The position numbers and the translations under genes were made by a program. Below the pieces are notes generated by a model. It did no database searches and had not been told where the DNA came from. It worked only from the letters and a program-made list of their open reading frames with translations. From Deltaproteobacteria bacterium (GTDB lineage Bacteria; Desulfobacterota; Desulfobacteria; Desulfobacterales; Magnetomoraceae): DNA of 19,865 nucleotides. Every line of letters begins with the position of its first letter. Positions within the stretch are counted from its first letter, which is position 1. Below, one piece after another: positions 1,792-16,818 of the stretch. The DNA is taken from assembly GCA_002753725.1 (NCBI GenBank), contig PEAL01000065.1, positions 1 through 19,865 on the forward strand, given 5' to 3'.

Positions 1792-1816
1792 TTATTCCTT
1801 ATTCCTTATTCCTTAT
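1792..1816. repeat. Heptamer tandem repeat (ttattcc)x3.5, which is (ggaataa)n on the minus strand
   Basis: ttattcc occurs at 1792-1798, 1799-1805 and 1806-1812, followed by a partial ttat. On the minus strand this gives TAA in all three frames within 17 nt; the first (1808-1806) is the giant gene's stop. It also gives three AAGGA Shine-Dalgarno-like motifs ahead of the small ORF. Confidence 0.8.
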
Positions 1817-4800
1817 AAAAAATGATGGCTTCGGCACGCCGATTTTTTAGTTTTCCTTCTGGCGTTACATTTTCTGTAATGGGGCGTGTCTCGCCATAAC
1901 CTTTAGATGTCAGTCGCTGGGATGATATGTTAAAGGTTTTAATCAGATATGTTCGGATATAATCCGCGCGTTGCTGTGAAAGCTCTACATTTTTATCTTC
2001 ATCGCCGGAATTATCTGTATGTGCTTCAATCGTCGCATAAACATCAGGATACTGATTTAATAATTTTCCCAGAGCATTGATACGAGCATGGCTGATGGGT
2101 TTAATGGCTGATGCATAAAAATGAACATTTAAATCATAATGAAGCGATGTGTCTGATGTTGTCAGTTGTGCAAAGGCTGATTGAACAGGGGTTACATTAC
2201 CTGCCCGATCTCGTGCCTGGAGATGAATAAACCATCGGCCATCTTTTTGCGAGAGTGTCGTTTGGGTGATGGATTGAAAGTCACCCGATGGTATGGATGT
2301 CGGTTTTTGATCAATAACATATCGATAGTGAATGATTGGATCATTATCTTTCGCATGCCATGTCCATTGTTTTATTTTTTGAGGAATAATGTCATTAATC
2401 ATTGTATCAAAAACAGGAGGTGTATTATCCAATAATGCAGATACTGTATATACTTCACTGATATTCCCGGCCCTGTCCGTTGCCTGTACATGAATGTATC
2501 TTTTGCCATCACCCTCTGATATTTCAGCGGTATGATGGTCTTTAAAAGGCCCTGATGGCACTGAGATTTCCGATGAGTTGATGACCCATCGAAATGTGAC
2601 CTGTTGATCCATATCTGTAGCATTCCACGACCAGGTTTTCCTTTGTAAGGGTACAGGATCATCCTGAAGTCCATTAATCATCGGTTTTTGATTATCAATT
2701 ATTGCGGATACTGTTTTTACAGCACTGATATTTCCAGCGCGATCCTGTGCTTGTACATGAATATACCATCGCCCATTAACATCAGATAAGTGAGCCTGAA
2801 ATACAGGGCTAAAAACAGTTGATGGTGACGTTTCAGGTTTCTGATCAATATGATATCGGTACAAGATATTAGAATCAGCATCCCTGGCGGTCCATGACCA
2901 TTGAATCTGCTTTTGGGGAATCAAATGGTCTGCCAGACCTTCTATTTCCGGAGGAATCCTATCCAATATTGCGTAAACTGTTTTCGTGGCACTGACATTC
3001 CCAGCCCGGTCTTTGCCCTGGATATGAAAATACCAGACACCATTCGCATTGGAGAGGCCTGTTTCATTTGTGTGCGTAAAAGAACCTGTTGGCTCAGCAT
3101 CTGAGCGTTGATCAAGAAGCCATCGATAAGCAATCTGTTCATCATCATCGTTGGCGCGCCATTGCCATTGTTTGGATTGAACAGGTGTATCGTCATTTGA
3201 AAGGTGAGTGATTACGGGTGGTTTGTTATCTAACACACAATGGACAGTCAATACATTACTGATATTAAACGCCCTGTCTTGTGCCTGAACATGAAGATAA
3301 AACAAACCATTTTCATTTTCAAGCCGTGCTTGGGTTATTTGTGAGAATTGATTTTTCGGTACAGTGTAAGCATTTTGGTCAATGATATATCGATATTGAA
3401 TAAAGAGATCGTTATCTTTAGCGCTCCATTGCCATTGTTTGGATGTTGAAGGGGTGGTATCACTGGCAAGTTGTATTAGAATCGGTGGCTCATTATCCAA
3501 AATTGCTGAAACAGTTTTGACAGAACTTAGATTTCCTGCATAATCTTTCGCCTGAACATGTAAATACCATGTGCCATCTTTATCCGCGATGCGTGCCTTT
3601 GTGATATTTTTGAATAGGCCTGTTGGTATGGACTCAAAATTTTGATCAATAACATATCGATATCGAACATCAGTATGGGCATCATGGCTGTTCCAGTGCC
3701 ATTCTTTTTGTTGATGAGGAACTTTATCATCTTCCAGTCCAAAAATCTTTGGCGATTGATTATCCAATATGGCCACCGCTGTGGTAACCGGACTGATATT
3801 CCCTGCCTGATCTTTTGCCTGAATATGAATATACCATTTTCCATTGGATTGTTTCAACGTGGCTTGAGAGATATTCGTGTATTCTCCAGTTGGCACAGAA
3901 TCAGATGTCTGATCAATGGTATATCGATACAAGCATGACACTTCATTGGCAGCATCCCACGACCAGACCTTTTTTTGAACGGGAGTAAGATAATCAGTAA
4001 TGCCTGTGATTATGGGAGATGAACGATCGATGATTGCAGACACAGTCACGATATCACTCAAATTTCCAGCACGATCCCGTGCCTGTACATGGAGGTACCA
4101 CGTCCCTTCACCATTGGACAATTCACATGAATGATGATCGGTAAATGAGGTTGTTGGAATACCATTTGCCAATTGATCGACCTGATAGCGATATTGAGTA
4201 TATGAGTCATTATCCTCAACCTGCCATTGCCAATGGATGGTTTGTGCTGGTATTAAAACGTTATTCAAGCCGGTTATGACCGGAAGGGTAGTGTCTATCA
4301 CGATAGAAGCAGTGACAACATCACTGATATTATTCGCTGAGTCTCTGGCCTGTACATGAATAAACCAGAGCCCCTCCGTGTGGGACAGGCTCGCCTGGTT
4401 GATGGAATTAAACGAACCGGTTGGTTGTGATCGTTGTTTTTGATCAATGGAATATCGATAGTAAATGTTTGCATCAGTATCTTTGCCATACCATCTCCAA
4501 GTATGTGATTTCATAGGCTGATGAATATCTGAAAGCCCTGAAAGACTTGGGGCTGTACGATCAATAATGGCTGAAACGGTTTTGATGGGACTCAAATTAC
4601 CGGCGGTATCTTTAGCCTGTATGGATAAATAAAACACGCCTTCACCATCAGAAAAACTAACGGTATTGGTATAAGCAAACGTACCCGATGGTTTAATTTC
4701 AGGATGTTGTGTAATCACATAACGATACATCACATGAGGATCATCATCTCTTGCACGCCATGACCATTTTTTTTGCTGTGTTGGAATGGGATCAACGTTG

Positions 4801-7800
4801 ATATCCACTATTTCAGGGGCAATAGTATCCAGTCTGGCAGAGACAGTGACCACATTACTTACATTATCCGCCCTGTCCCTGGCCTGAACATGTAAATAGA
4901 ATATGCCATGATTATTGGAAATCTCTGCATATGTTATATCTGAAAAAGGACCAGAAGGTGTATATTGCTCAAAAGGGTTGATCGCATATCGATACATCAG
5001 TTCTGTATCCTGATCCTTTCCATGCCATATCCATTTTTTTTGGCTGACAGGGTTTATATCACTGGATAAGCCTTCAATGGTTGGAGGAATCGTATCAAAA
5101 TTTGCCCATACTGTTTGGGATGTGCTGATATTGCCAGCCCGGTCTTTTGACTGAACGTGAAGGAACCATCGGCCATTAATATTCTTTCCTGTAAAACAGG
5201 TCGTGGTATCAAAATCAGTTGAAAATTGTGCCTCGGAATGTTGAGTGAACGAATAACGCGATTTTACGCCGCTATCCTGATCAATTAATTGCCAGGCCCA
5301 TTGTTTGGACTGAACAGGATATGCAACAGAGGATAGCCCTTTTATTACAGGAGGAGTATTATCAAGAATACTTGACACTGTAACGATTTCACTGGTATTC
5401 CCAGCGCGATCCAGTGCCTGAACATGAATAAACCATGTCCCTTCAGCATTAGATAGATGAGCAGAGGTCACATGGGTAAAGGATGTTGTGGGGGATGCAT
5501 CGGCACGTTGATCGATAATATAGCGATGCAATACGTCTGGATCATTATCCAGGGTTGCCCATGTCCATGATTGATTCCTGACTGGATACAGATTATCTGT
5601 AAGTCCGATAATTTCAGGCGGGGTGTTGTCAATGATTGCAGAAACTGTGATGTGTTCACTAAGATTTCCTGCCTGATCTTTTGCCATAACATGCAAATAC
5701 CAGATGCCATCACCTTCTTCAATCGTGGCCTTGGCTTCTGGTTTGAATTGTCCAGATGGCGGTGCATCTTTATTTTGATCGATAGAAAATTGATAACTGA
5801 CGGTTTCATCCAAAGGTTCAGAATACCATGTCCATTTTTTCTGGTGTTTAGGTATAGAATCGTTTGAAAGCCCTTTAATGATTGGTGCTGTGTTATCCAA
5901 AATGGCTGAAACGCGAATTATTTCACTCAAATTGCCAGCACGGTCTTTTGCTTGAAGAAAAAGATAGCACATCTGATTTTCACCAGAGATTTCAACAGAT
6001 GTTTCATGCGTGTAAGAGCCGAACGGTTGTTTCTCAAGCGTTTTACTGATAGCATACCGATAGTCAAGGTATGGATCAGCATCATGGCCTTTCCATTGCC
6101 ATTTTTTTCTTTGTGTGGGAACGGGGTCATCATCTAACCCACTAATAACCGGGGCTGTGTTGTCCAGCAATTCAGAAACAGTGGCAACATTACTTTCATT
6201 TCCTGCGCGATCAATGGCCTGAACATGCAAATACCATCGGCCATCACCACTGGATATCGATGCCGTGTTCGTATATTGATAATTACCATCAGGTAAGGCG
6301 TTTTCATTTTGGGTGATTAAATACCGGTATACAATTTGGTGATCAGCGTCTTTTGCCTGCCAGTTCCATTTTATTTTTTTTACAGGATGCATTACAGGAG
6401 ATAATCCCGTGACTACCGGCTTTGTTGTATCGATGAGAGCTTTCACTGTAACCACAGAACTTAAATTGCCAGCAGTATCTTGTGCCTGTACATGGAGATA
6501 CCAAAGACCATCCGTTTCATAAATGGGTGTTGAATGAATCGTTGAAAAAATTCCCAATGGTTTGGAATCATAGAATTGATCAATTAAAATTCGAAAGCGA
6601 ACAGTGGGGTCAGCATCTTCTGCATGCCAAGAAAAAGATTTACTTCTTACCGGCGTTACTTCCCTGTCATCAGAAAGCCCCTTAATAACAGGCGGTAATT
6701 GATCCAACAGACAATATACATGATAAACCTTACTGAGATTGCCTGCCCAGTCTTTTGCCTGAACATGAAGATACCACCGCCCATCGACATCTTTAATTGT
6801 TGCGGTAGTTGTTTTTTTAAATTCTGTTTCAATGAGGGACTGTTCTTTCTGGTCAATGGTATACCGAAATGTCGCATTTTCATTTGAATGGGTTTTCCAG
6901 GCCCATATTTTCTGTTTTTTAGGAACGGAATCATTTTCAATACCCACAATTCTGGGAGGCACATTATCCAGAACCACAGAGACCGTGACAACATTGCTGA
7001 GATTTCCGGCGCGATCTGTTGCCTGAACATGGAGATAGCATAAGCCTTCAATATCTTTGGCAATCGCAGAATGTGTTGAATTAAACGGTCCTTCAGGTTT
7101 TGAATCAGGATGATGATCGATCAAATACCTGAAAAGAATAGTGGTATCATCATCCTTTGCTGACCATGTCCATCGTTTAACTGTTGTGGACGTTAATGAA
7201 TCAGACAGGCCGATAATTATTGGCGCTGTGGTATCAAGAATTGTCTGGACAGTGACAGTATTGCTTTCATTGCCTGCTGTATCGCATGCCTGAAGATGTA
7301 GATACCAGATACCATCATCATAATAATTTTTATCCAGTTGAATCATGCGGGTGAATGTATATGCACCTTTTGGATGAGAATCGGCAAACTGATCGACAAG
7401 ATATCGAAACCGAACATTGGGGTCAGCATCGTTTGCTGATAGCATCCATTTTTGTATGGACACTGGCGTAATCGAATGAGCAATATCATTAATGAGTGGT
7501 GGTATGGTGTCAATTGTAATGGATAACAACTCAGAAATACTGATATTTTCATCACTCTGGGTTTGATAATGTGCAGATAATTCATGTGTCCCTTCAGTCA
7601 AATCAATGTTAAACTGAAAAATATCTGCTGTGATGACTGTCGTTGCCCCTGATAAAGCATTTCCATCAACAAGAAGAACCACTGTCTGGTCGATATCTCC
7701 GAATCCTTGAATGTGTAAATTTTTAGATTGGCGGGTGATCCTATCGGTATTGAAAAAACCTGTATCATGTTCAGGTTCCAAGGATAGATTATATGGTTTT

Positions 7801-8693
7801 GGGTAGTGTGAATAAATGCCTTCTCCCCAGAAAATGTCAGCATGTTCTGTTTTATTCACCGCATTTTGTTTATTTCGAATATTGGTATACGCAATTGAAA
7901 TGGCATTGGAATCAGCATATTCAGACAAATAAATTTCATAGGGCATTTGTTCATTCCACAACGTTGCATGCGTCATAGTAAGAGAAGAATGATAAGCAAA
8001 AATGGCAGAGGAAACAGGGGCATCATTAACGGGGTGATTTTGGGTTAAAACCGTGCGAAATATATTTATCGTTGATTTTTGGGCGTAAATGGCTATTCCG
8101 GAAGTGGCTTTATTGTTCATCAATGTGACATTCGATAAGATCATATCTGAACCCTGACAATATATCCCTGCACCTGAACTGTTTGCTGTATTATGGACAA
8201 TGGCTGTTTGAGTGAGAGTCATGTTAGCGTACACGCAATATATACCACCGCCTTGTTCTGCGGTATTTTCTTTGATAATGACATTCACGAATTGAGGTGA
8301 TGCACCTCTGCAATAGACCCCTCCGCCGAGGTAAAAGGATTTTATGTCAGCTTTTCCATTGATGAGCGAAACATTACTGATGTGCGTTTTTTGATCCACA
8401 ATACCACCCAATGATTCATCAAAAAGCAACACACTTGAACGTTGGCAGCCATCAATGATTGTCTTGTTCTTGTCTTCACCAGACAGCTGAATGCCATTGA
8501 CTTTTGGCCATATAATATTTTCACGATAATTCCCATTTTTAATCAAAATGGTATCGTTGGATGTTGCAGAATTCAATGCTTGCTGGATGGTTTTAAAATC
8601 CGCTGGTACATGTAACATACGTGCATATGTGATTGAACATGCAAATAATAAAAAAAGAATACAAAATAAATATGGTTTAATGCTTGTTCTCAT
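1806..8693 (-). CDS. Giant (2295 aa) envelope or surface protein with four parts: lipoprotein-type signal, Pmp-like parallel beta-helix, 20 Ig-like tandem repeats, C-terminal OmpA-like peptidoglycan-binding domain
   Basis: - **Start:** chosen at M38 of the ORF-track frame (ATG 8693-8691), 11 nt after the upstream gene's stop. The resulting N-terminus is MRTSIKPYLFCILFLLFAC, with lipobox L-F-A-C.
- **aa ~62-335:** GGGVYC/GGGIYC/GAGIYC alternating with (I/V/L)xxNxA, the GGA(I/L/V)+FxxN pattern of polymorphic-outer-membrane-protein / PbH1 beta-helix repeats.
- **aa ~360-436:** an Ig-like module.
- **Repeat array:** 20 repeats (see the repeat feature).
- **C-terminus (nt ~1809-2126):** IEAHTDNSGDEDKNVELSQQRADYIRTYL...GYGETRPI...NRRAEAIIF, which matches the OmpA_C-like signature (TD..G....N..LS..RA..V..YL / G.G...P / NRR.E). 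Confidence 0.93.
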   Translation of the reverse strand: MRTSIKPYLFCILFLLFACSITYARMLHVPADFKTIQQALNSATSNDTILIKNGNYRENIIWPKVNGIQLSGEDKNKTIIDGCQRSSVLLFDESLGGIVDQKTHISNVSLINGKADIKSFYLGGGVYCRGASPQFVNVIIKENTAEQGGGIYCVYANMTLTQTAIVHNTANSSGAGIYCQGSDMILSNVTLMNNKATSGIAIYAQKSTINIFRTVLTQNHPVNDAPVSSAIFAYHSSLTMTHATLWNEQMPYEIYLSEYADSNAISIAYTNIRNKQNAVNKTEHADIFWGEGIYSHYPKPYNLSLEPEHDTGFFNTDRITRQSKNLHIQGFGDIDQTVVLLVDGNALSGATTVITADIFQFNIDLTEGTHELSAHYQTQSDENISISELLSITIDTIPPLINDIAHSITPVSIQKWMLSANDADPNVRFRYLVDQFADSHPKGAYTFTRMIQLDKNYYDDGIWYLHLQACDTAGNESNTVTVQTILDTTAPIIIGLSDSLTSTTVKRWTWSAKDDDTTILFRYLIDHHPDSKPEGPFNSTHSAIAKDIEGLCYLHVQATDRAGNLSNVVTVSVVLDNVPPRIVGIENDSVPKKQKIWAWKTHSNENATFRYTIDQKEQSLIETEFKKTTTATIKDVDGRWYLHVQAKDWAGNLSKVYHVYCLLDQLPPVIKGLSDDREVTPVRSKSFSWHAEDADPTVRFRILIDQFYDSKPLGIFSTIHSTPIYETDGLWYLHVQAQDTAGNLSSVVTVKALIDTTKPVVTGLSPVMHPVKKIKWNWQAKDADHQIVYRYLITQNENALPDGNYQYTNTASISSGDGRWYLHVQAIDRAGNESNVATVSELLDNTAPVISGLDDDPVPTQRKKWQWKGHDADPYLDYRYAISKTLEKQPFGSYTHETSVEISGENQMCYLFLQAKDRAGNLSEIIRVSAILDNTAPIIKGLSNDSIPKHQKKWTWYSEPLDETVSYQFSIDQNKDAPPSGQFKPEAKATIEEGDGIWYLHVMAKDQAGNLSEHITVSAIIDNTPPEIIGLTDNLYPVRNQSWTWATLDNDPDVLHRYIIDQRADASPTTSFTHVTSAHLSNAEGTWFIHVQALDRAGNTSEIVTVSSILDNTPPVIKGLSSVAYPVQSKQWAWQLIDQDSGVKSRYSFTQHSEAQFSTDFDTTTCFTGKNINGRWFLHVQSKDRAGNISTSQTVWANFDTIPPTIEGLSSDINPVSQKKWIWHGKDQDTELMYRYAINPFEQYTPSGPFSDITYAEISNNHGIFYLHVQARDRADNVSNVVTVSARLDTIAPEIVDINVDPIPTQQKKWSWRARDDDPHVMYRYVITQHPEIKPSGTFAYTNTVSFSDGEGVFYLSIQAKDTAGNLSPIKTVSAIIDRTAPSLSGLSDIHQPMKSHTWRWYGKDTDANIYYRYSIDQKQRSQPTGSFNSINQASLSHTEGLWFIHVQARDSANNISDVVTASIVIDTTLPVITGLNNVLIPAQTIHWQWQVEDNDSYTQYRYQVDQLANGIPTTSFTDHHSCELSNGEGTWYLHVQARDRAGNLSDIVTVSAIIDRSSPIITGITDYLTPVQKKVWSWDAANEVSCLYRYTIDQTSDSVPTGEYTNISQATLKQSNGKWYIHIQAKDQAGNISPVTTAVAILDNQSPKIFGLEDDKVPHQQKEWHWNSHDAHTDVRYRYVIDQNFESIPTGLFKNITKARIADKDGTWYLHVQAKDYAGNLSSVKTVSAILDNEPPILIQLASDTTPSTSKQWQWSAKDNDLFIQYRYIIDQNAYTVPKNQFSQITQARLENENGLFYLHVQAQDRAFNISNVLTVHCVLDNKPPVITHLSNDDTPVQSKQWQWRANDDDEQIAYRWLLDQRSDAEPTGSFTHTNETGLSNANGVWYFHIQGKDRAGNVSATKTVYAILDRIPPEIEGLADHLIPQKQIQWSWTARDADSNILYRYHIDQKPETSPSTVFSPVFQAHLSDVNGRWYIHVQAQDRAGNISAVKTVSAIIDNQKPMINGLQDDPVPLQRKTWSWNATDMDQQVTFRWVINSSEISVPSGPFKDHHTAEISEGDGKRYIHVQATDRAGNISEVYTVSALLDNTPPVFDTMINDIIPQKIKQWTWHAKDNDPIIHYRYVIDQKPTSIPSGDFQSITQTTLSQKDGRWFIHLQARDRAGNVTPVQSAFAQLTTSDTSLHYDLNVHFYASAIKPISHARINALGKLLNQYPDVYATIEAHTDNSGDEDKNVELSQQRADYIRTYLIKTFNISSQRLTSKGYGETRPITENVTPEGKLKNRRAEAIIFYKE
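2163..7496 (-). repeat. 20 tandem, diverged ~89-aa (~267-bp) coding repeats inside the giant gene
   Basis: Each unit carries W-x-W...D-x-D...(Y/F)-R-Y...D-Q...P-x-G...G-x-W-(Y/F)-(L/I)-H-(V/I)-Q-A-x-D-x-A-G-N-x-S...(L/I)-D-N-x-P-P-x-I-x-G-L. I counted 20 occurrences of the HVQA.D.AGN core (e.g. WYLHVQAKDWAGNLS, WFIHVQARDSANNIS). The D.AGN...V.V.D..PP.I ending resembles HYR/bacterial Ig-like beta-sandwich repeats, but I cannot assign the exact family by eye. The copies are diverged at the DNA level, so this is not a recent amplification. Confidence 0.9.
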
Positions 8694-8704: not shown

Positions 8705-10858
8705 TTAATTGACGACAATCGAATAAAAATAATAAAAATAACCTGCTATCATAAAAAGAGATAAAAAAAGTCCTGTACATTTTACTCTTGGTATTGCCTG
8801 ACAAAAGCCTTTTCGATTCAAGCCGGCAATAATAAGTGTCAACACAAATGAAAGGCCTGTCATAAGGTAAAGAAGAATAAACCAGTGATCAAATGGGATA
8901 AGATAATCAACAGATATTTCAGACAGGAAGTAATATAAGAACGATACCACTCCCAGGCATGACAGATGGGCAAACATCGCAATCAGTGTATGGGAAGGAA
9001 TGATGAATAAAAGGCAGGATAAAAGACCCATAATAATGCATCCAGGAACAAAACATCGCAACCACTGATGAAAAGAATCTCGATGAATAAGGATTTGAAT
9101 TCTATAATCCGGGTTATGTTCTTGATTAAATTGCGAATAATCAACCTTAGGTTGCGTTGTCATGCCATAAGCATAGCAGCGATTCAGTTTCCAGTTGGAA
9201 AGGTTAAATCGATCATTGTCATTGAGACTGATTTCTTTGTTAATATATCTCATTTCATTACTTTTTAATGTATTATGATAAAAATGAATACCTAACTTTT
9301 GTTTATCAAAAGGGTATGTATGGTACAAAAAATTTATCTTAAAGGATCCCTTAATGCTGTATTTTTTATACAAGACACCATCAAGGGTTCCACTTTCAAC
9401 AGGATCGTCTAAAACAACAGGTGTTGTTGCATTTAAAAAGCAAATATCTGCGGGGTCGATTACCGGGGTGTCATACAAGAATGTCAGAAAAAAATGAGCC
9501 GTAAAGAACGATTCTTTTATATCCAGTTCAACGATTTCAGTTTTTACCTGAACAATCGATACGTGTTGAATATCTGATTCATAAGGATTTGTATGGTTTA
9601 ATTTAGATTTCATGTCCATCAGAAACTGTTGGTGAAAAGGAACAAGTACCCCTTTTTGATAGTGACCCAGACCTGTATTTTTTATTGCATTTCCATTATC
9701 ATCAAAAAAGATATCACCGCAGATTCCTTTAAAAGCATAATCAGGTTTCTTTATATCGGTAAGAAAATTTTTTATTTGACGTCTGTACTGGTAAGATCGT
9801 GCAGTGGGGTCAATTTCCATTTTTCTAAGAATATCTGCCATCAGAAGTGTGGCATCATAATAATTTGTTGCAATAGACGATGGAACGTTACGATATTTTT
9901 CATAATAGGCCTTAAAAAAGTCTACAGATTGAGAATTAAACAAATAATTCGCAAAGATATCATTTGCAGTTGTGAAAACACCATCTGAATAATAACCAGG
10001 AATTGATTTTTCCAGGGCAATTGTTCGTAATTCGTTTTGAAACGATTCATATGAAAATACATGACCATTGGTTATAAAAAAGTGAGGATCAAAAGCGTTT
10101 AATTTTTCAATAATCTGAACAGCCAGGCGATCAGATGTTGCAATAAAAACAGAGCTTTTTGCTTTAGATGTTTTAAACATTCTAACGATGGTTTGCAGTT
10201 GTGGATAAATATTTTTTTCTTCATCAATATCAATTGTATTTTCAATTTTAATGCCGTTATTTTTGAAAAAATTCATATATGTATTTTTGATATCACGACT
10301 ATAAATATCTTTAGATGCAATAATGGTTACAGGTGACCATTTACAATACTGCTTTGAAAACATAGCCAGAAATGTTGCCTGATGGAGAGAGGATGGTATG
10401 GATCGAAAATACCATTCATTGTTTAATGTAACATTCGTTGCTGGTGCTGAGGCGGTAATCGCGGGGATACCTTCTTTTAAATAAACCTGCCCGGCAGAAA
10501 AACTGGCAGCGCTGCTATAATGCCCAATAACAAAAAGCAGATGGTCATTTCTTGAGAATGAATTGGCAACTTTCATGGCAAGATTGGTTTTATTCATGTC
10601 ATCTTTATAGATATATTTCAATTTTTTACCATCAATACCGCCATTTGCATTGATTTTTTCTATACATAAATCAATACCCCGAAGCATTTCTTTGCCATAT
10701 TCTTCATCCGCCCCACTGAATGGGCCTGCAACACCAAACAGGCACACATCTTGATCACTGTGATAGATATCAAATACACTCAATAGTAGTAGTATACCGA
10801 TAAACAGTATCACAATTAAAATAATCAATAGGCCTTTATTTAAAATGAATTGTTTCAT
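8705..10858 (-). CDS. Type-I periplasmic binding protein (LivK/ANF-receptor-like) fused to a pentameric ligand-gated ion channel (Cys-loop superfamily) module: paralogue A, 717 aa
   Basis: - **N-terminus:** signal anchor LLIILIVILFIGILLLLSVF.
- **aa ~38-410, PBP-I motifs:** FGVAGPFSGADEEYGKEMLRGIDLCIEKINANGGIDGKKL, FVIGHYSSAAS, IPAITASAPATNVT, EWYFRSIP.
- **aa ~432-592, pLGIC extracellular-domain pattern:** IVQVKTEIVELDIKESFFTAHFFLTFLYD, CFLNA, and the signature loop YPFDKQKL (nt 9293-9316).
- **Transmembrane part:** IHRDSFHQWLRCFVPGCII (pre-M1 Arg plus M1 Pro) and four TM helices with a very short M3-M4 loop, including an IPFDHWF M3 start. Confidence 0.85.
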   Translation of the reverse strand: MKQFILNKGLLIILIVILFIGILLLLSVFDIYHSDQDVCLFGVAGPFSGADEEYGKEMLRGIDLCIEKINANGGIDGKKLKYIYKDDMNKTNLAMKVANSFSRNDHLLFVIGHYSSAASFSAGQVYLKEGIPAITASAPATNVTLNNEWYFRSIPSSLHQATFLAMFSKQYCKWSPVTIIASKDIYSRDIKNTYMNFFKNNGIKIENTIDIDEEKNIYPQLQTIVRMFKTSKAKSSVFIATSDRLAVQIIEKLNAFDPHFFITNGHVFSYESFQNELRTIALEKSIPGYYSDGVFTTANDIFANYLFNSQSVDFFKAYYEKYRNVPSSIATNYYDATLLMADILRKMEIDPTARSYQYRRQIKNFLTDIKKPDYAFKGICGDIFFDDNGNAIKNTGLGHYQKGVLVPFHQQFLMDMKSKLNHTNPYESDIQHVSIVQVKTEIVELDIKESFFTAHFFLTFLYDTPVIDPADICFLNATTPVVLDDPVESGTLDGVLYKKYSIKGSFKINFLYHTYPFDKQKLGIHFYHNTLKSNEMRYINKEISLNDNDRFNLSNWKLNRCYAYGMTTQPKVDYSQFNQEHNPDYRIQILIHRDSFHQWLRCFVPGCIIMGLLSCLLFIIPSHTLIAMFAHLSCLGVVSFLYYFLSEISVDYLIPFDHWFILLYLMTGLSFVLTLIIAGLNRKGFCQAIPRVKCTGLFLSLFMIAGYFYYFYSIVVN

Positions 10859-10889
10859 AAGTTGCTATAAATTATATAAATTATTATTC

Positions 10890-13037
10890 TTAAAGCGGAA
10901 AACAACAGTTGACCACATAAAAAGATATCATCATTATCGTAATCAAACATGCTGCCTTTCCCAAAAATTGAACGAACGCCATTGATTGCTTATAATGATG
11001 GATCGATAAGCCTATCAGTCCCATTTGAAACATGATTGTCAACCCAATAAAACCATACAAACACATAAACAGCATTTCAGAGAATGTCAGAAATGGTATG
11101 TGTAATTTGAAATATAAATGGCATACAGTAGTGATCATCAGGAATATGATATTGATCACCAATGAAATTTTTATTCGATGCACAGGACAAAAATAACTGA
11201 TCGATGTCAGTAGAAAAAGAATAAGACAGGCAATAAAAATAAGCTTTTCCTGCTGATTCAGGCGCCTTTGAATATGAATATCAACAGCGAATTCAGATGC
11301 GTTATTCTTAATATCTCCTGACAATGGGCTTTTTATTAAATAAGGCATCGCGTCCACAGATAGCCATGTTTCAGAATTCAATTTAAAACTTATTTTATTT
11401 AGCTGATCAATAGCAAATATAAACGTGTTTGTGTTTACGCTTGTATCCCGAAAACTTATGGTCAGTTTTTGGCTGTCTATGGGATATCGTTTAAGGTCAA
11501 AGTGATGATAAAATACACTATCCACGGTGTATAACAGATGTGTGGTACCTTGTTTATTCATAGTTTTTTTAGGATTTTTCAATACAAGCGGAGAAACAGC
11601 GTTGGTAAATTGAATCCATTCAGGTTGAAAATGCTTTTGAAAACTAAACCAGAGATTAAACCGGGCATGAAATGTACCATCTATCGTATTGATTTGATTT
11701 AATTGAATATCATCTATCCTTACATACACTAATTGTTTTTTGATAAAATAATCATCATTGTTTGCCATAACGTCATTATCTAATGCTTTTTGAATCAAAT
11801 CATTGGAAATATCATTGAGTGAAACAGCGATGTATTGATGAAAGGCGGGAATATAATGGCCCTTGTATAATTGAGTGACAATCATTGACTTTTTCGTTTC
11901 GCCAACACCATTAAAAAATATTTTTCCGGTTAAGCCCTCCACACAGTGATTCCTATCATAGAATGTTTCAAGTGCATTTTTGAATTTTTTTCTGATGTCC
12001 CGGATAGCCCCCTGTATCTCAATTTTTCTTAATGCTTCAATGCTAACATGTGCCAGATCATAAGATGTCGTACTGATTAATGAAGGCGGTACTCCATAAA
12101 AGGTATAATAATTCTTTTCAAAAATTCTATTGATTTGTTTTGAAAAATACTGAGAAAACAACGATACAGAGTAGATACCATTTGAATAAAAACCGGGTGA
12201 GGATTGTTCTTTGGGATACGCTTTGAATCCATCGATAAAAATTTGAGATGCCAAGGAATCTGCGCCCATAATGATTTGATTCAGTTGCTTCTTTTTCAAA
12301 CCAACCACCAATTTTACAGACGTATCAGCGTGGGTTGCCAAAAAAAACATATCAGGTTTTAACGCATGCGTATCAATGGCCTGTACAATAGTATCAACCT
12401 GATCATCCATACTCGTTGAACTCGAATCCAATGGATATTGTTCAACAATCTCAATTCCTTTTTCCAGTGCTTGTTCTGTAAATACTGCTGCTAAATTTTT
12501 ACCATATGCCCCTGTATCATAAACAATCGTTGCGGTTTTAAGATTCAATGCTGATTGTGCGTAAGCAGCAAGAAAATCACTTTGACAGGAATTTGGTGGG
12601 ACAATTCTGAACAACCATTCATTCATAATCGGCAAGTCATCAGATGTTGCTGAACCGGTTATTGATGGAATCATGTTGTTTTCATAAATAGAGGCAGCCG
12701 CAGTGCAGCAGGAACTGAAATAATGTCCCAGAACAAAAAGAATGTCCTTGTTTCGAACAATTTGTTTTGCTGCACCGACAGCGCCTTCTTCGGTGCCTTT
12801 ATCGTCAAAAACAAGCAGCTTGATCTGGCTGCCATGAAGTCCTCCTGAGGCGTTTATTTGATCAATATAGAATTGTACCCCTTTAACCATTTCATTTCCA
12901 TAAAAAGACTGGGAACCACTGAATGTACTCGCAACCGCAATATAAAGCGTTTTCTTGCCATAATACAAATGAATCGTATAAAATATGGAAATCAACATGC
13001 TTATCAGTAAAATTATAATAATATATTTTTTCATCAT
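10890..13037 (-). CDS. Type-I periplasmic binding protein fused to a pLGIC (Cys-loop superfamily) module: paralogue B, 715 aa
   Basis: - **Start:** chosen at M20 of the ORF-track frame (ATG 13037-13035), 2 nt after the upstream TAA (13042-13040). This gives MMKKYIIIILLISMLISIFY.
- **PBP-I motifs:** YIAVASTFSGSQSFYGNEMVKGVQFYIDQINASGGLHGSQIKL, FVLGHYFSSCC, IPSITGSATSDDL, EWLFRIVP.
- **pLGIC part:** LVYVRIDDIQLNQINTIDGTFHARFNLWFSF, QFTNA, HHFDLKRYPIDSQKLTISF (YPIDSQKL at nt 11463-11486), IHIQRR, then four TM helices.
- It is collinear with paralogue A throughout. Confidence 0.85.
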   Translation of the reverse strand: MMKKYIIIILLISMLISIFYTIHLYYGKKTLYIAVASTFSGSQSFYGNEMVKGVQFYIDQINASGGLHGSQIKLLVFDDKGTEEGAVGAAKQIVRNKDILFVLGHYFSSCCTAAASIYENNMIPSITGSATSDDLPIMNEWLFRIVPPNSCQSDFLAAYAQSALNLKTATIVYDTGAYGKNLAAVFTEQALEKGIEIVEQYPLDSSSTSMDDQVDTIVQAIDTHALKPDMFFLATHADTSVKLVVGLKKKQLNQIIMGADSLASQIFIDGFKAYPKEQSSPGFYSNGIYSVSLFSQYFSKQINRIFEKNYYTFYGVPPSLISTTSYDLAHVSIEALRKIEIQGAIRDIRKKFKNALETFYDRNHCVEGLTGKIFFNGVGETKKSMIVTQLYKGHYIPAFHQYIAVSLNDISNDLIQKALDNDVMANNDDYFIKKQLVYVRIDDIQLNQINTIDGTFHARFNLWFSFQKHFQPEWIQFTNAVSPLVLKNPKKTMNKQGTTHLLYTVDSVFYHHFDLKRYPIDSQKLTISFRDTSVNTNTFIFAIDQLNKISFKLNSETWLSVDAMPYLIKSPLSGDIKNNASEFAVDIHIQRRLNQQEKLIFIACLILFLLTSISYFCPVHRIKISLVINIIFLMITTVCHLYFKLHIPFLTFSEMLFMCLYGFIGLTIMFQMGLIGLSIHHYKQSMAFVQFLGKAACLITIMMISFYVVNCCFPL

Positions 13038-13039
13038 AT

Positions 13040-15721
13040 TTAATTCAGTTGCCAATCTTTGATATTCTGTCCACCAAGAGCCATATGAGACCAATTTTTA
13101 ATGCGTGGTTTTATAAGGTAATGGTCGGTTTCATAGAAAATGGGGATTACAAGCGTCTCTCTTTGGGTCAGAATCTCATCGATCATTAAATAATAGTCTT
13201 TTCTTAAATGTAAATTTTTTTCTTTTATGGCTTTATTCAACACATCAGATAATTCTGTATTGATATAACTGTTCTGGCGGCTAAGCTTGTTATATGAATC
13301 AAACAAAAAACTATTGGCATCAGGAAAAGTCGCATACCAGTCAGAAATGAAAATATGAGCCTGTCTGGGATTGTATGAACCAGGTTCTGTAAGACCGATG
13401 ACAGTGGATTGAAGATTCAATCTTTTTTTAAGTAGTAATGAAATCGCTTTGGCAATTTGTTTATGGGAATCATGGATTCCTGAATCAATTAGAATTGCAG
13501 GGCATCCTTTTCCGCCAGGATAGCCCGCTTCGGCTAACATTTTCATGGCATGAGTGGGATGGTAAACAGGCCGTTTCTCCTGACTTGACAGCAATAATAA
13601 ATCAGGGGGTATAAACATTTTCATTGCCTTTTGTTGCCCATGAATGACGAACCTGGTAATAAATGAGCGATCAATAACAGACGCAATGGCTTTTCGTAAC
13701 AAAACATTATCCACAGGGGATTGATTCACATTGAAAAAAAGGCCGGTTGTAGAAAAATTGGTACGTTCTTGATAGTCATGTCGGGTTTCAGGTTGCTTTT
13801 TGACCGAATCAAGAAAACGCGATGGGATGTTTATAAAAGCCCCCCCAAGAATATCCAGTTGATTGTTTTGATACATATGCAAAGCAAGCAGGCTGTTCAT
13901 GATAACGTTATAACGCACTTCCTGAATGGCAACAGTTGAAGCATCATAATAGCGGTCATTTTTTCGTAAAATAATCAAAGAGCCTTTTTCATGACAAGCC
14001 AGTTGAAAGGGACCATTACTGACAATATGTTCAGGGGCTGTCCATTCAGCAGCCCATTTTTGAATCGTTGCCGAAGGCAGAGGGCTGAAAACAGGCAGTC
14101 CGGTGATTGAAGGAAAAAATGCAGCAGGATAGGACAGGATAAAATCAATGGTATAATCATCAATAACGTTGACCCCCAGTTTTGATGCATCTTTGATGAA
14201 TCCTAGATGAATGTCCTGGGCATTTTTGAGTATGAATAAGTGTTTTACATCCGGGCATTGGGTTTCAGGGGTCAAATTTCTAACTATTGCAAATCTCAGA
14301 TCGTGAGCTGTCACCGGCTGTCCGTTTGTCCAGAACACATTTTTTCGCAATTTAAACCGGTAACGATCTAAGGTTTCATTCGGTTCCCAACTCGTGGCAA
14401 AGTCCGGGGAAGACTGATAGGTGTCAGGATGGTATTGAGTCAGGCGTATAAACAATTGCTTTGATAATTCAGTTGTTATTTTATCATGGGCAAGCCCCGG
14501 GTCTAATCGTGAAACATCATTGTTACAAAACCTGTTTATATTGAAAGAATCGACCAGGTCAAAAAAATCATCCTGCTTTTTTTCTTTTCGATTAATAATG
14601 ACAAATTTTCCATCTTCATATTTTTTAAAAAATAAAGCGGATGGCCCGATATTTCCTTGTCGTGTCAGATGATATTGACTTAAAACACCATCCCAATGTT
14701 CCATGAATCTAAGAGTTGTATTTAAAACCATTGGTAAACATGAATTACTTTTTTCCATTGACGTTTTAAGCAAATGAATCAGATCATAACCCCGGGCAGC
14801 AAATGTTTCAGGCTCAACGCCAAAGGCTTGCGTAAAACTGGAAACAAAATCTTGTGTTAATTTTCTGGGAAGTGTGTTGTCAAAGTTGCTTGGGATGATG
14901 GTTCCTTCAGCTTTTTTTCCAGTATTACTCCAAAAATAGCGTGTGTCAATTTCATCGGTGGCCATAATTGGGGTATTGATATTCAACTCTCTCATCTGAT
15001 TTACCACCAATGCTGCGATGTTATCTCTGCATAATAATAAAACAATGTCAAAGGATTCATTTTTTAAATCACTTAAGATATCTCTGAAATTTGTTTCAGA
15101 TCGAGAAAAGGATTGTTGAGATACAATCGCAAGGCCTTTTTGTGTGGCCTCTTCATAAAAAATATCAGCAAGAATCTTACTGGTTTTCTGGCGGTCATTA
15201 AGGATAATAATGCGCTGATAGTGGTTTTGAGAGAAACATTCAGCAATTCTTCTAACATATACTTGATCTGGCATATAATTATTAAAAATATAGGCCCCGC
15301 CATAGCGTAATAAATCCGCCCCTGTAGAAAAAAATAATATGCCAGCTTCTTTGTATACGATTGATGCAGAAATAGCATTTTGAGGACTAAAATGTCCGAT
15401 AACAGCAAAAACATTTTTATTTTTAGCTAATTTTTCTGCAATGCGAATGGATGTTTTTTCATCATCATAATCATAAAACAAAAGCGGTCTGATCCTTTTC
15501 CCCATAACGCCGCCATCGCTGTTTATTTCATCCATAGCCAGTTTAACGCCATGAGCAAACTGTGTGGTAGCAGGGAATGCGTCCACAATTCCAATGAAAA
15601 GATCATCGGTTGATCGGGTCAAATGCTTCATGCGCTCTTCATTGGAAATAACCTTGTTACATGAAAAAAATGTAAGAAGGAGTACAATAAAAGCAAAATG
15701 TAAAACGATGATTGGTTTCAT
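13040..15721 (-). CDS. Probable lipoprotein fusing two solute-binding domains: N-terminal LivK-type PBP-I plus C-terminal family-5 (OppA/DppA/NikA-type) SBP, 893 aa
   Basis: - **Signal:** MKPIIVLHFAFIVLLLTFFSC (Cys21, an imperfect lipobox F-F-S-C).
- **aa ~40-378, PBP-I:** FIGIVDAFPATTQFAHGVKLAMDEINSDGGVMGKRIRPL, FAVIGHFSPQNA.
- **aa ~390-893, family-5 SBP pattern:** LDPGLAHDKITTELSKQLFIRL, SWEPNETLDRYRFKLRKNVFWTNGQPVTAHDLRFAI, VSNGPFQL, LRKNDRYYD.
- It ends 2 nt before the next gene's ATG. Confidence 0.88.
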   Translation of the reverse strand: MKPIIVLHFAFIVLLLTFFSCNKVISNEERMKHLTRSTDDLFIGIVDAFPATTQFAHGVKLAMDEINSDGGVMGKRIRPLLFYDYDDEKTSIRIAEKLAKNKNVFAVIGHFSPQNAISASIVYKEAGILFFSTGADLLRYGGAYIFNNYMPDQVYVRRIAECFSQNHYQRIIILNDRQKTSKILADIFYEEATQKGLAIVSQQSFSRSETNFRDILSDLKNESFDIVLLLCRDNIAALVVNQMRELNINTPIMATDEIDTRYFWSNTGKKAEGTIIPSNFDNTLPRKLTQDFVSSFTQAFGVEPETFAARGYDLIHLLKTSMEKSNSCLPMVLNTTLRFMEHWDGVLSQYHLTRQGNIGPSALFFKKYEDGKFVIINRKEKKQDDFFDLVDSFNINRFCNNDVSRLDPGLAHDKITTELSKQLFIRLTQYHPDTYQSSPDFATSWEPNETLDRYRFKLRKNVFWTNGQPVTAHDLRFAIVRNLTPETQCPDVKHLFILKNAQDIHLGFIKDASKLGVNVIDDYTIDFILSYPAAFFPSITGLPVFSPLPSATIQKWAAEWTAPEHIVSNGPFQLACHEKGSLIILRKNDRYYDASTVAIQEVRYNVIMNSLLALHMYQNNQLDILGGAFINIPSRFLDSVKKQPETRHDYQERTNFSTTGLFFNVNQSPVDNVLLRKAIASVIDRSFITRFVIHGQQKAMKMFIPPDLLLLSSQEKRPVYHPTHAMKMLAEAGYPGGKGCPAILIDSGIHDSHKQIAKAISLLLKKRLNLQSTVIGLTEPGSYNPRQAHIFISDWYATFPDANSFLFDSYNKLSRQNSYINTELSDVLNKAIKEKNLHLRKDYYLMIDEILTQRETLVIPIFYETDHYLIKPRIKNWSHMALGGQNIKDWQLN

Positions 15722-15746: not shown

Positions 15747-16616
15747 TTAATTTTTATCACCATTTGTTTCTGTATTCAGAATTAAAGGCAATCCATTCTT
15801 GCCACTGCCAATAATAATAATTTTTGAATTTTGTGATTCTGCAAGTTTTTCAGTGGCTTTAATCCCTTGCCAATTGAGATATTGTTCTTTATTGAAAAGG
15901 GATGATGCAATGGTGTTCAAATGATCTCGGATACCTTCTGCTTCAATTCTTTTTCGGGTTGCTTCTTTTTTTTCTCGCTCAATAACATAAGTATGGGCTT
16001 CCGCCAGATGTTTTTGTTTGATTTTATTACGAATGGATTCGGCCACTTCTTCAGGAAGTATGATCCCCCGAACAAGAACATCATCAATATTGATATAGCG
16101 TTGAGCGACCTGTTCTATGGCTTTATTGATAGCCTCCACAATTAATTTTCTTCCCGTGGTGTAAACTTCTTCAGCATTCAATGTACCAATAATTTCACGA
16201 ATAACAGCTTCTATTTCAGGAATAATCACCTTATCCGCATACTCCATTCCCACTTGCTGATGTAATACACCAAGAAGTTTATATTCAGGCGCATAGCGAA
16301 TAGAGAGTTTAATATGAACTTGCAAACCATTTTTAGTGAGGACATCCATTTCCGGTTTAATTTCCTGGATACGAACATTATAGACGTACATTTTATCCCA
16401 GGGAAGAATTAAGTGAAGACCTTCTGAATAAACAGAAAGGATATCTGTTCCACCAAAAAAACGACTCCAAAACACCGCTGCTTCACCTGGATAAATATTG
16501 TATACAATCATATTAAACAGGAAAGCAAAGGTCAATAAAGCAATCAAAATGGTCAGAATGAGAGAAAAGGTATAATTTTTTAATTTGATAAAAAAGTTCT
16601 TGAACCTGTTTTTCAT
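15747..16616 (-). CDS. SPFH/Band-7 (prohibitin/HflC-like) membrane protein, 289 aa
   Basis: The start is chosen at M28 of the ORF-track frame (which opens on TTG), giving MKNRFKNFFIKLKNYTFSLILTILIALLTFAFLF, an N-terminal membrane anchor. SPFH core: PGEAAVFWSRFFGG...GLHLILPWDKMYVYNVRIQE...TKNGLQVHIKLSIRY. A charged coiled-coil follows: KQKHLAEAHTYVIEREKKEATRKRIEAEGI. It is the first gene of the minus-strand operon. Confidence 0.88.
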   Translation of the reverse strand: MKNRFKNFFIKLKNYTFSLILTILIALLTFAFLFNMIVYNIYPGEAAVFWSRFFGGTDILSVYSEGLHLILPWDKMYVYNVRIQEIKPEMDVLTKNGLQVHIKLSIRYAPEYKLLGVLHQQVGMEYADKVIIPEIEAVIREIIGTLNAEEVYTTGRKLIVEAINKAIEQVAQRYINIDDVLVRGIILPEEVAESIRNKIKQKHLAEAHTYVIEREKKEATRKRIEAEGIRDHLNTIASSLFNKEQYLNWQGIKATEKLAESQNSKIIIIGSGKNGLPLILNTETNGDKN

Positions 16617-16818
16617 GATAAATTTCTTTTCATGGATGATAATTAAACAGTAAAATGGGGTGGAAATCAATGATTGTATTGTTATTATGAACAGCAAATG
16701 ATAATAACTAAAAAAAAATGAAATGTCTATGAAAAAAAATGAAAGAAAGGGCAGCCATCACAAAGCATATGGCAACAAATCTATAAATCATTACATAAAT
16801 ATATAAAGATGTAGACCA
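16617..16818. promoter_or_regulatory. Divergent intergenic/promoter region between the minus-strand operon and the plus-strand FAD-protein gene
   Basis: A 202-bp AT-rich gap between divergently oriented start codons. Candidate sigma70-like promoter on the minus strand: -35 TTGATT (16670-16665), 17-nt spacer, -10 TTTAAT (16647-16642). A direct repeat aaaaaaaatgaaa occurs at 16711-16723 and 16732-16744, a 21-bp period. Motif-level guess only. Confidence 0.35.

Follow-up and report, generated by a model that had tools for sequence, protein, structure and literature searches.

A 19,865-nucleotide stretch of DNA from a multicellular magnetotactic bacterium of the Desulfobacterales (Ca. Magnetomorum), analysed here as the window, encodes two adjacent proteins, B and A, that each join a periplasmic-binding-protein clamshell (PBP-I) to a pentameric ligand-gated ion channel (pLGIC) module. 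Sequence comparison and structure prediction leave us nearly certain of this domain identity, and we consider it likely that A and B are clamshell-regulated channels. The proposal taken whole, with clamshell regulation, a heteromeric pair and a shared operon, seems to us slightly better than an even prospect.

The Gene Pair

Both open reading frames lie on the minus strand where the first-pass annotation had placed them and contain every peptide that it quoted. Its central claim, that two diverged tandem genes each encode PBP-I plus a Cys-less ('Pro-loop') pLGIC module, is borne out by Pfam, by PDB sequence and profile matches and by AlphaFold2 (Table 1). GenBank names both products "ABC transporter substrate-binding protein". 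The start of B is that of GenBank, with a TTG at 13094 likewise open, and a gap of 31 nt separates B from A. The two proteins are 25–27% identical, and an identity of 25% marks the pair, at sequence level, as old. In both, an N-terminal membrane helix is followed by a LivJ-type PBP-I, a pLGIC beta-sandwich and four transmembrane (TM) helices, and in each subunit a short helix connects the LivJ-like PBP-I Venus-flytrap with the top of the beta-sandwich. As modelled, the hydrophobic N-terminal helix of B would serve as a signal peptide or else stay uncleaved as a membrane anchor.

Table 1. Coordinates of the A/B pair, its predicted domains and the neighbouring cluster genes in the window
Feature	Coordinates	Strand	Description	Basis
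Giant secreted protein	1806..8693	minus	~2295 aa; Ig-like repeats (Big_13 etc.), C-terminal OmpA peptidoglycan-binding	Pfam
Gene A	8705..10858	minus	717 aa, GenBank MBF0451356.1; predicted diverged paralogous PBP-I::pLGIC subunit	
A aa 595-716	8711..9076	minus	M1-M4 bundle	AlphaFold2 + family alignment
A aa 433-592	9083..9562	minus	pLGIC extracellular beta-sandwich	Family HMM E 6.8e-95
A aa 38-407	9638..10747	minus	PBP-I clamshell, altered ligand site	Peripla_BP_6 E 1.2e-32
Gene B	10890..13037	minus	715 aa, GenBank MBF0451355.1; predicted PBP-I::pLGIC subunit	ORF + domain matches
B aa 595-712	10902..11255	minus	M1-M4 transmembrane bundle	AlphaFold2; family profile aligned to GLIC, ELIC-GABAA chimera, GluCl
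B aa 407-591	11265..11819	minus	pLGIC extracellular domain	Matches to sTeLIC, GLIC, ELIC, DeCLIC; AlphaFold2 strands
B aa 30-405	11823..12950	minus	LivJ/LivK-type PBP-I clamshell	
B aa 2-26	12960..13034	minus	Hydrophobic N-terminal helix	AlphaFold2 + sequence
Predicted lipoprotein MKPIIVLHFAFIVLLLTFFSC...	13040..15721	minus	893 aa; PBP-I + SBP_bac_5	Pfam
SPFH/Band_7 (stomatin-like) protein	15747..16697	minus	First cluster gene	Band_7 6.5e-25

The Channel Module

Pfam Neur_chan_LBD and Neur_chan_memb do not match A or B themselves; some relatives of the same family exceed the gathering score for these models. Searched alone against PDB sequences, B finds sTeLIC (5e-6) and GLIC (2e-5), and A gives a marginal match to ELIC (0.046), the C-terminal halves of A and B matching each other at 2e-14. 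A joint A+B profile reaches DeCLIC at 2.6e-6, and a profile of 11 family sequences does so at 1.3e-14. The latter retrieves 299 distinct PDB sequences at E<=0.01 (best E 1.2e-19), with alignments that span the Cys-loop region through M4, and among the matches listed for it, 60/60 are pLGICs or pLGIC chimeras. Across the B, A+B and family-profile searches, pLGIC alignments run collinearly from beta1-beta2 to M4.

The motif assignments of the first-pass annotation stand. The Pro-loop YPFDKQKL of A (aa 515-522) occupies nt 9293-9316 exactly and YPIDSQKL of B (aa 518-525) nt 11463-11486, and no cysteines occur around either motif. B has its pre-M1 Arg at R591, and A has it within 'LIHRD'. The extracellular domain of B comprises a top helix (407-419), the beta-sandwich, the Pro-loop motif and R591; that of A is shorter by comparison, with the top helix and a portion of beta1 missing.

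For B, AlphaFold2 predicts (pLDDT 87.3, pTM 0.81) a TM helix at 2-26, the PBP at 30-405, a helix at 407-419, the beta-sandwich at 423-591 and TM helices at 595-616, 619-643 (M2), 652-679 and 683-712, with a 3-residue turn in agreement with the minimal M3-M4 loop read from the sequence. Confidence is lower for A (pLDDT 74.5, residues 536-585 poorly modelled), whose model has the same order of elements, such that in both predictions a beta-sandwich precedes four helices, as anticipated. In both PDB fold searches, PBP-I structures make up the matches listed, which include none to the channel half.

Conservation of the gating elements was counted over 163 family members: the Pro-loop proline is present in 161, the aspartate that follows it in 146 and the pre-M1 arginine in 142 (K in 13), which speaks for a channel that still works and against a relic. 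M2 of A carries S633-C634-L635-G636 ("SCLG"), invariant in all five distinct A-type orthologues, and E647. Polar M2 residues are kept by type (N629, T/N636 and H640 in B-types; S633 and E647 in A-types), a pattern consistent with selection on the pore lining. For B, the pore register depends on the alignment, by a shift of two residues: anchored on the family, it places V2', I6', M9', V13' and L16' along a lining that is almost wholly hydrophobic, and the pairwise GLIC alignment gives S2', N6', F9' and T13'. Conducting channels seldom have pores that are hydrophobic throughout.

The Clamshell Domains

Pfam identifies the N-terminal halves as proposed, with Peripla_BP_6 (E 1.2e-32 for A, 9.2e-38 for B) and ANF_receptor (1.6e-23 for A, 5.6e-21 for B) both matching; the NCBIfam LivJ subfamily model gives 84-92 bits, with a cut-off of 477. 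B-types retain equivalents of the LivJ contacts Y18, S79, A101, T102 and Y150 (contact list from PMC6983066), mapped through a presumed LivJ sequence and with a presumed role of E226. Where residue 280 of the Anabaena amino-acid SBP 4nqr/4obb aligns, B-types have likewise kept an acidic residue. In A, P139 replaces the T102 equivalent and H266 the acidic residue. These T->P and D->H/N substitutions occur in all five distinct A-type orthologues, and two LivJ amino-acid contacts are gone from every A-type copy. By this residue comparison, B is the copy with the amino-acid-binding residues retained, and its ligand is probably an amino acid or close analogue.

Conservation of the Pair and Its Gene Cluster

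The A/B pair is retained in 5/5 distinct related loci found, always in the order B then A, down to 39–43% identity, and tandem pairs of independent origin occur elsewhere (L006, L007). These conservation data strengthen the earlier suggestion of a heteropentamer or two ligand specificities.

The pair lies within a five-gene cluster ordered Band_7, PBP-I+SBP_bac_5 lipoprotein, B, A and giant OmpA-anchored Ig-repeat protein. The Band_7 gene, separated by 25 nt from the lipoprotein gene downstream of it, is conserved in position in L001, L002/L003, L005, L006 and L028, and in these same loci the lipoprotein gene (SBP_bac_5 2.4e-62, Peripla_BP_6 5.8e-30) stands beside related channel genes; 2 nt separate its stop from the ATG of B. 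The giant protein probably starts at an ATG at 8693, 11 nt past the A stop, with a signal-peptide-like N-terminus, and a syntenic homologue follows the A-type gene in L001, L002, L027, L028 and L029. Intergenic gaps within the cluster measure 2-31 nt and contain no terminator-like sites, and we infer that the pair is expressed within a conserved operon. Soluble double ABC ATPases adjoin the relatives in L005 and L006.

Comparison with Known Systems

The PBP-I::pLGIC architecture is not new, having been in the literature for 20 years. Tasneem, Iyer, Jakobsson and Aravind (2005; PMC549065) predicted such N-terminal fusions ('ART-LGIC') from genomes, with examples in Magnetospirillum magnetotacticum and Bradyrhizobium japonicum, drew the parallel to NMDA receptors and mGluR, and proposed that binding proteins, whether fused or encoded in the same operon, sense small ligands or concentrate them beforehand; this is the comparative genomics that the first-pass annotation had mentioned. 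The architecture occurs in 136 of the best 150 cluster representatives and is very common in metagenomes. A and B share with the ART-LGICs the order of PBP-I clamshell, pLGIC ligand-binding domain and 4-TM channel. Set against the published description, they are very divergent Desulfobacterales members missed by the Pfam channel models and form a conserved, anciently diverged pair; their Band_7, PBP-I+SBP_bac_5 lipoprotein and giant OmpA partners are undescribed in PMC549065, where the neighbours are stand-alone PBP-II or Cache proteins.

A search of the accessible literature turned up no characterised PBP-fused pLGIC, and the DeCLIC papers of 2022 and 2025 give DeCLIC as the only characterised pLGIC bearing an N-terminal domain (NTD), in agreement with the earlier statement to this effect. 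DeCLIC (PDB 6v4a), from a Desulfofustis-related source and, like A and B, from a sulfate-reducing deltaproteobacterial lineage, is likewise a Cys-less pLGIC whose extra N-terminal domain, in the periplasm, makes up about half the protein mass, and its channel half is homologous to theirs. Its NTD, which modulates gating, has two lobes for which a relationship to calcium-binding regulatory domains is described, whereas A and B carry a PBP clamshell; DeCLIC is a homopentamer with Ca2+ as known effector. GLIC, ELIC and sTeLIC have in common with A and B the beta1-beta2 region, Pro-loop Y-P-F-D, pre-M1 Arg, M1-M4 and minimal M3-M4 loop, but they have no N-terminal domain, and their gating by protons, amines or pH takes place at sites inside the beta-sandwich. 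In B this sandwich is ~25 residues shorter than in GLIC and is without the loop-C 'S-T-L-G-x-P' motif of the wider fused family.

In eukaryotic iGluRs, plant GLRs and class-C GPCRs (mGluR, GABA-B, T1R), the pore or TM part is unrelated, being a tetrameric P-loop channel or a 7-TM module instead of a pentameric 4-TM Cys-loop-type channel, and the agonist clamshell of iGluRs is of PBP-II type, their PBP-I domain being modulatory. GABA-B R2 and T1R3 are heteromer partners with non-binding flytraps and offer a functional analogy for the A/B asymmetry.

Alternative Readings

We put co-assembly of A and B as a heteromer at even chances, the evidence being gene adjacency and asymmetric divergence. 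Two separate homopentamers with different ligand specificities, that is, two receptors from one operon, are possible but rather unlikely. Systematic differences between A-type and B-type clamshell sites would be equally expected from two specificities, bacterial pLGICs were expected to be homopentameric (PMC549065), and all bacterial pLGICs of solved structure among the search matches (GLIC, ELIC, sTeLIC and DeCLIC) were deposited as five copies of one sequence. A-types, however, lose generic alpha-amino/alpha-carboxylate contacts and not merely the side-chain pocket, their extracellular domain is trimmed, and B-A adjacency is strict at 39–43% identity, with tandem pairs recurring independently; none of these points is decisive.

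Improbable, in our judgement, is a non-conducting pLGIC-derived module, acting as a pentamerising membrane scaffold or transducer that shows five periplasmic clamshells and signals conformationally to partners such as Band_7, or passes ligand onward. It would account for the hydrophobic M2 of B in the family-anchored register, for divergence great enough that the Pfam channel models miss A and B, and for conserved partners (a Band_7 membrane scaffold and binding proteins) that are not obviously ion-related, and it could accommodate the double ABC ATPases. Yet the Pro-loop P and D and the pre-M1 R, through which the extracellular domain is coupled to the pore, are conserved family-wide, polar M2 residues are conserved within each type, and we know of no pLGIC that acts as a non-channel. 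Least credible, to the point of being negligible, is the database annotation as membrane-anchored substrate-binding proteins of an ABC importer: the GenBank names and truly LivJ-like N-terminal halves speak for it, but the C-terminal ~300 residues, homologous to pLGIC extracellular and transmembrane domains, contradict it, Pfam finds no ABC permease or ATPase genes in the window, and the LivJ subfamily scores fall far short of the cut-off.

Proposed Function

For a clamshell-regulated channel, we expect that five subunits would form a cytoplasmic-membrane pore crowned by five periplasmic clamshells. A small ligand would close the clamshell, and the linker and the conserved coupling elements, namely the Pro-loop (Y-P-F/I-D) and the pre-M1 Arg, would relay this closure to the pore lined by M2, opening or modulating it, such that a periplasmic chemical signal would become an ion flux and a change in membrane potential. 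Because the PBP-I domains of iGluRs are modulatory and not agonist-binding, the clamshell may tune the channel rather than gate it. If the two form a heteromer, ligand binding would fall to B, and A, its clamshell site diverged, would be a structural or pore-specialised partner. The Band_7 protein would serve as an SPFH scaffold in the operon, the double-clamshell lipoprotein may capture or present ligand, and the giant protein would be an OmpA-anchored surface protein. What this locus adds to the family is an old A/B pair kept across loci, with type-specific changes in the clamshell site and M2, in a conserved gene cluster.

Organization and annotation of the locus

The window, an entire GenBank contig of 19,865 bp, comes from a MAG of Candidatus Magnetomorum sp., one of the multicellular magnetotactic prokaryotes within Desulfobacterales, and carries genes A and B within a cluster of five closely spaced genes (see the table), separated by 25, 2, 31, and 11 nt in the order from the Band_7 gene to the giant gene. 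As listed, the ORF of the giant gene opens with a TTG at 8804 and shares 100 nt with gene A; the start is likely the ATG at 8693, after which a signal-peptide-like sequence follows. Promoter-motif counts did not exceed those of shuffled sequences, and a promoter and terminator scan of the intergenic gaps was uninformative. One of the two divergent genes upstream encodes a TPR protein with a C-terminal SlipAM/Slam-like beta-barrel (surface lipoprotein assembly modifier), and the related loci showed no link of the TPR/SlipAM and FAD-oxidoreductase genes to the channel genes.

Genes of the contig and structural elements of the model of protein B
Feature	Position	Strand	Remarks
Two genes: FAD-dependent oxidoreductase or TPR + SlipAM/Slam-like barrel	18214-19716, 16819-18198	plus	upstream of cluster, divergent
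Band_7/SPFH gene	15747-16697	minus	first of five genes
PBP-I + SBP_bac_5 fusion, predicted lipoprotein, 893 aa	13040-15721	minus	second of five
Gene B, PBP-I::pLGIC	10890-13037	minus	GenBank MBF0451355.1
Gene A, PBP-I::pLGIC	8705-10858	minus	GenBank MBF0451356.1
Giant secreted protein: many Ig-like repeats (Big_13, Big_3_2, Big_6), beta-helix-like N-terminus, C-terminal OmpA	1806-8693	minus	last of five
Elements of B (AlphaFold2), aa	TM helix 2-26; clamshell 30-405; helix 407-419; beta-sandwich 423-591; M1-M4 595-712

GenBank labels A and B alike as "ABC transporter substrate-binding protein", an annotation explained by the silence of the Pfam Neur_chan models on their C-terminal halves. The first-pass annotation had instead described a tandem pair of PBP–pLGIC fusions. 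Its peptides and coordinates for A and B all agree with the translations, including YPFDKQKL at nt 9293-9316 and YPIDSQKL at nt 11463-11486, neither of which has a cysteine beside it.

Identity of the channel halves

The fusion itself is upheld by PDB and profile matches, all pLGICs among those listed, and by a model with a sandwich and four helices. Pfam on the C-terminal halves of A and B alone gave no Neur_chan match at E<=10. This is a failure of sensitivity and not counter-evidence, because the searches against PDB sequences with B alone and with profiles are clear: the resemblance to GLIC, ELIC, and DeCLIC that had been anticipated is found there, and is missed by Pfam. B alone matches sTeLIC (5.3e-6) and GLIC (2.3e-5), A alone is marginal (ELIC, 0.046), and the two C-terminal halves match each other at E 2e-14. 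A profile of A and B finds DeCLIC at 2.6e-6, as well as GLIC, sTeLIC, ELIC, and a nicotinic receptor subunit, while an 11-member family profile reaches 1.2e-19 for its best match and 299 distinct PDB sequences at E<=0.01, with pLGICs making up 60 of 60 among the matches listed. The family-profile alignments span the Cys-loop region to M4, and the beta1-beta2 match is collinear but weak. Relatives in the same family exceed the Pfam threshold for both Neur_chan_memb and Neur_chan_LBD.

A fold-library search with the full-length B model returned, among the matches listed, PBP structures and no match to the channel half; a word-index protein search with the channel half alone found no relatives, though the full-length proteins were in the collection, and a full-length alignment query in the same kind of search recovered 14 full-length relatives. 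We treat the empty channel-half searches as a limitation of word-index methods.

The Cys-less Pro-loop motif, YPFD at aa 515-518 of A and YPID at aa 518-521 of B, aligns with Y119-P120-F121-D122 of GLIC. Over 163 family members, the gating elements are conserved: the Pro-loop proline in 161/163, the following aspartate in 146/163, and the pre-M1 arginine in 142/163. The AlphaFold2 monomer model of B (pLDDT 87.3, pTM 0.81) has a three-residue M3-M4 turn and, together with R591 of B (which aligns with an arginine in A), agrees with the pre-M1 arginine, four TM helices, and minimal M3-M4 loop described at first pass. The model of A, whose input alignment lacked A's own orthologues, is weaker (pLDDT 74.5); its layout is that of B, except that the linker is shorter and the region 536-585 is poorly defined. 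We regard it as established, at the level of sequence and predicted structure, which domains A and B contain, in what order, and with what topology.

The clamshell halves

The N-terminal PBP domain of both proteins had also been called correctly: Peripla_BP_6 scores 114 bits in A (E 1.2e-32) and 131 bits in B (E 9.2e-38), well above the gathering cut-off of 31.7 bits. Foldseek places the B model at a TM score of 0.89 to LivJ (4gnr), with a two-lobe Venus-flytrap fold. A role of A and B as ABC-transporter substrate-binding proteins is nonetheless contradicted by the C-terminal four-TM channel module, and is further opposed by the lack of any ABC permease or ATPase gene within the window and by scores far under the cut-off of the NCBIfam LivJ model.

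LivJ contacts its ligand through Y18, L77, C78, S79, A100, A101, T102, Y150, Y202, and F276 (PMC6983066), with S79 and T102 making polar contacts to the main chain of the amino acid. In a mapping made by alignment only, all B-types (orthologues of gene B) keep the Y, S, A, T (T131 in B), and Y of these contacts. An acidic residue, D260 in B, is likewise kept in all B-types; in the Anabaena amino-acid SBP the aligned position is residue 280, and in LivJ it is E226. All five distinct A-types (orthologues of gene A) have proline at the LivJ T102 position (P139 in A) and His or Asn at the acid position (H266 in A). Divergence within the pair thus looks asymmetric, with a B clamshell that appears competent and an A clamshell that appears degenerate.

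An ancient pair with conserved neighbors

A and B share 25-27% identity, and the order B-type then A-type recurs in every related locus recovered, at 66% identity in L001 and L027 and at 39-45% in L002/L003/L030, L028, and L029. This distribution indicates that the pair is ancient and retained. Protein A alone found no matches as a metagenome query, and an alignment of A-types found four further loci. Two distant loci, L007 (46% identity) and L006 (35% identity), have tandem pairs of independent origin. In one lineage, a HepT-like (toxin–antitoxin nuclease) gene lies between the B-type and A-type genes (L002 6026-6427, L003 12171-12572) of an otherwise intact cluster.

The succession of Band_7, PBP-I+SBP_bac_5 lipoprotein, and channel genes is the same in L001, L002/L003, and L028, and L005 (Ca. 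Magnetomorum HK-1) and L006 have a rearranged form of this set around paralogues that are more distant. In L001, L002, L027, L028, and L029, the A-type gene is followed by a gene for a giant OmpA-anchored protein with Ig repeats. The double binding lipoprotein, which joins PBP-I to a peptide/nickel-type SBP_bac_5 domain, is unusual and stands beside channel genes in L001, L002/L003, L005, L006, and L028, at least five loci in all. From synteny alone, we speculate that the Band_7 scaffold and this 893-aa lipoprotein with its two clamshells may serve to deliver ligand and to organize the complex. Elsewhere, two other partners recur: genes for soluble tandem ABC ATPases (two ABC_tran domains, no permease) adjoin PBP-pLGIC genes in two distant loci (L005 7825-11065, L006 10578-13913), and DUF697 genes lie close by in L001 and L006, with an N-terminal DUF697 fusion in one family member, P0081; both gene types are absent from the window.

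Family size, variants, and hosts

The A+B channel profile, run exhaustively with HMMER against 1.84 billion cluster representatives, matched 1,443 of them at E<=1e-3, and 441 of these reach E<=1e-10. The best 150 of the 1,443 representatives comprise 110 with PBP-I+pLGIC, 17 with an added SBP_bac_1-like domain, 9 with another C-terminal extension, and 14 with pLGIC only; the PBP-I::pLGIC architecture is therefore found in 136/150 and, judging from these matches, is a large, old family.

Many relatives, 17 of the best 150 among them, are three-module proteins in which PBP-I and pLGIC are followed by about 440 aa of SBP_bac_1/SBP_bac_8 (PBP-II-type) after M4 (P0088, P0098, and P0122; ORFs of 1125-1234 aa in L008, L009, L011, L017, and L020). 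The C-terminal SBP domain would be periplasmic, and these proteins therefore combine both iGluR clamshell classes on a Cys-loop-type pore; Tasneem et al. 2005 (PMC549065) mention PBP-II genes only as operonic. Two other relatives, P0010 (L006 7001-9547) and P0044, have a cyclic-nucleotide-binding domain at their C-terminus (PF00027, 2.7e-18 in P0044). In P0010 this domain begins directly after M3 and M4 is missing, which would place it in the cytoplasm, and P0010 may be a cyclic-nucleotide-modulated pLGIC variant.

Hosts of close relatives, in a genome sample defined by two peptide patterns (L008-L023), include Ca. Parabeggiatoa, Ca. Halobeggiatoa, Ca. Marithrix, Trichodesmium, Dapis, and several Anaerolineae/Chloroflexia. 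Many of the host lineages are filamentous or multicellular, the multicellular magnetotactic Magnetomorum included, which is a lead and not a statistic; we claim no enrichment in multicellular bacteria.

Relation to known receptors

Bacterial pLGICs with an N-terminal PBP-I, Cache/MCP-N fusions, and operonic PBP-II genes were described by Tasneem, Iyer, Jakobsson, and Aravind in 2005 (PMC549065); the first-pass annotation had rightly stated that comparative genomics knew of PBP-fused members. These authors drew the parallel to NMDA receptors and mGluRs, and suggested that small ligands are sensed or concentrated by the binding domains (PMC549065). A and B agree with their fusions: a single chain holds PBP-I and, directly C-terminal of it, the pLGIC ligand-binding domain and the 4-TM channel. 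Our literature search found no study of any PBP-fused pLGIC, in line with the earlier statement that none has been characterized, and the DeCLIC papers of 2022 and 2025 give DeCLIC as the sole characterized pLGIC with an NTD.

The proposed likeness to iGluRs holds for a clamshell mounted on a channel and fails for the class of clamshell. The homologues of PBP-I are the amino-terminal domain of iGluRs and the flytrap of mGluRs, whereas the iGluR gating clamshell is PBP-II, and the analogy therefore needs qualification; on the same analogy, a modulatory rather than agonist role of the PBP-I clamshell is possible. A and B are not ionotropic glutamate receptors, as the channel half matches pLGICs only, among the matches listed, and Pfam finds no PBP-II domain in either protein. 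iGluRs carry a tetrameric P-loop pore inside a PBP-II-type agonist domain, and the resemblance is one of functional analogy only.

Pore chemistry and proposed mechanism

For M2 of B, the pairwise alignment with GLIC and the family-anchored alignment differ by two residues. The former gives a polar/hydrophobic lining (S2', N6', F9', T13'), the latter an all-hydrophobic one (V2', I6', M9', V13', L16'). In protein numbering, the residues at 2', 6', 9', and 13' of B are S625, N629, F632, and T636 in the first register and V627, I631, M634, and V638 in the second. A hint of anion selectivity in the pairwise register (R at -2', K at 0') was dropped on account of this shift, and we therefore make no selectivity claim for B. 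We keep, as a minority alternative, a reading in which the pLGIC-derived module is a non-conducting scaffold. The A-types share an invariant S-C-L-G in M2 with a glutamate eleven residues on (S633, G636, and E647 in A; S6', G9', and E20' in the family register), and a glycine at the canonical 9' gate would be unusual. The B-types have N629, T/N636, and H640 in common.

For a conducting channel, we propose that five subunits would form a pore crowned by periplasmic clamshells, and that ligand-induced closure of a clamshell would be passed through the 407-419 helix to the Pro-loop and pre-M1 elements and on to M2. B would bind an amino-acid-like ligand, and A would be a non-canonical partner, most simply within a heteromer. 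In the flytrap pairs of GABA-B and T1R, ligand is bound by one partner only, an arrangement that the logic of A and B would resemble. We consider it improbable, though worth stating, that the five-gene cluster is a dedicated chemo-electrical module: an obligate heteromeric, amino-acid-sensing pLGIC with one binding and one non-binding, pore-specialized subunit (cf. GABA-B/T1R), which multicellular or filamentous bacteria would use to link membrane potential to a periplasmic or intercellular chemical cue and so coordinate their cells. Hosts include the multicellular magnetotactic Magnetomoraceae, with relatives in Beggiatoaceae, Trichodesmium, and filamentous Chloroflexota.

Significance

The tandem fusion is real, and its first-pass interpretation holds. 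Since this widespread architecture had been predicted as early as 2005, A and B are very divergent, mis-annotated additions to a known kind; the features worth following up are their five-gene cluster and the asymmetry conserved between A-types and B-types. The divergent channel half escapes Pfam, which is why hundreds of these proteins are labeled only as ABC-transporter binding proteins; Pfam-reliant surveys therefore under-count bacterial pLGICs, and pipelines built on Pfam or word-index search will label such fusions as plain substrate-binding proteins. Because the small-molecule ligand of its clamshell can be predicted and the closing motion is well understood, a PBP-capped pLGIC would be a tractable system for studying how a Venus flytrap couples allosterically to a Cys-loop-type pore. 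A and B bear on the physiological roles of bacterial pLGICs and on their control by extra N-terminal domains, to which this locus adds a natural A/B pair, conserved partner genes, and a multicellular magnetotactic host in which fast chemo-electrical signaling would be interesting.
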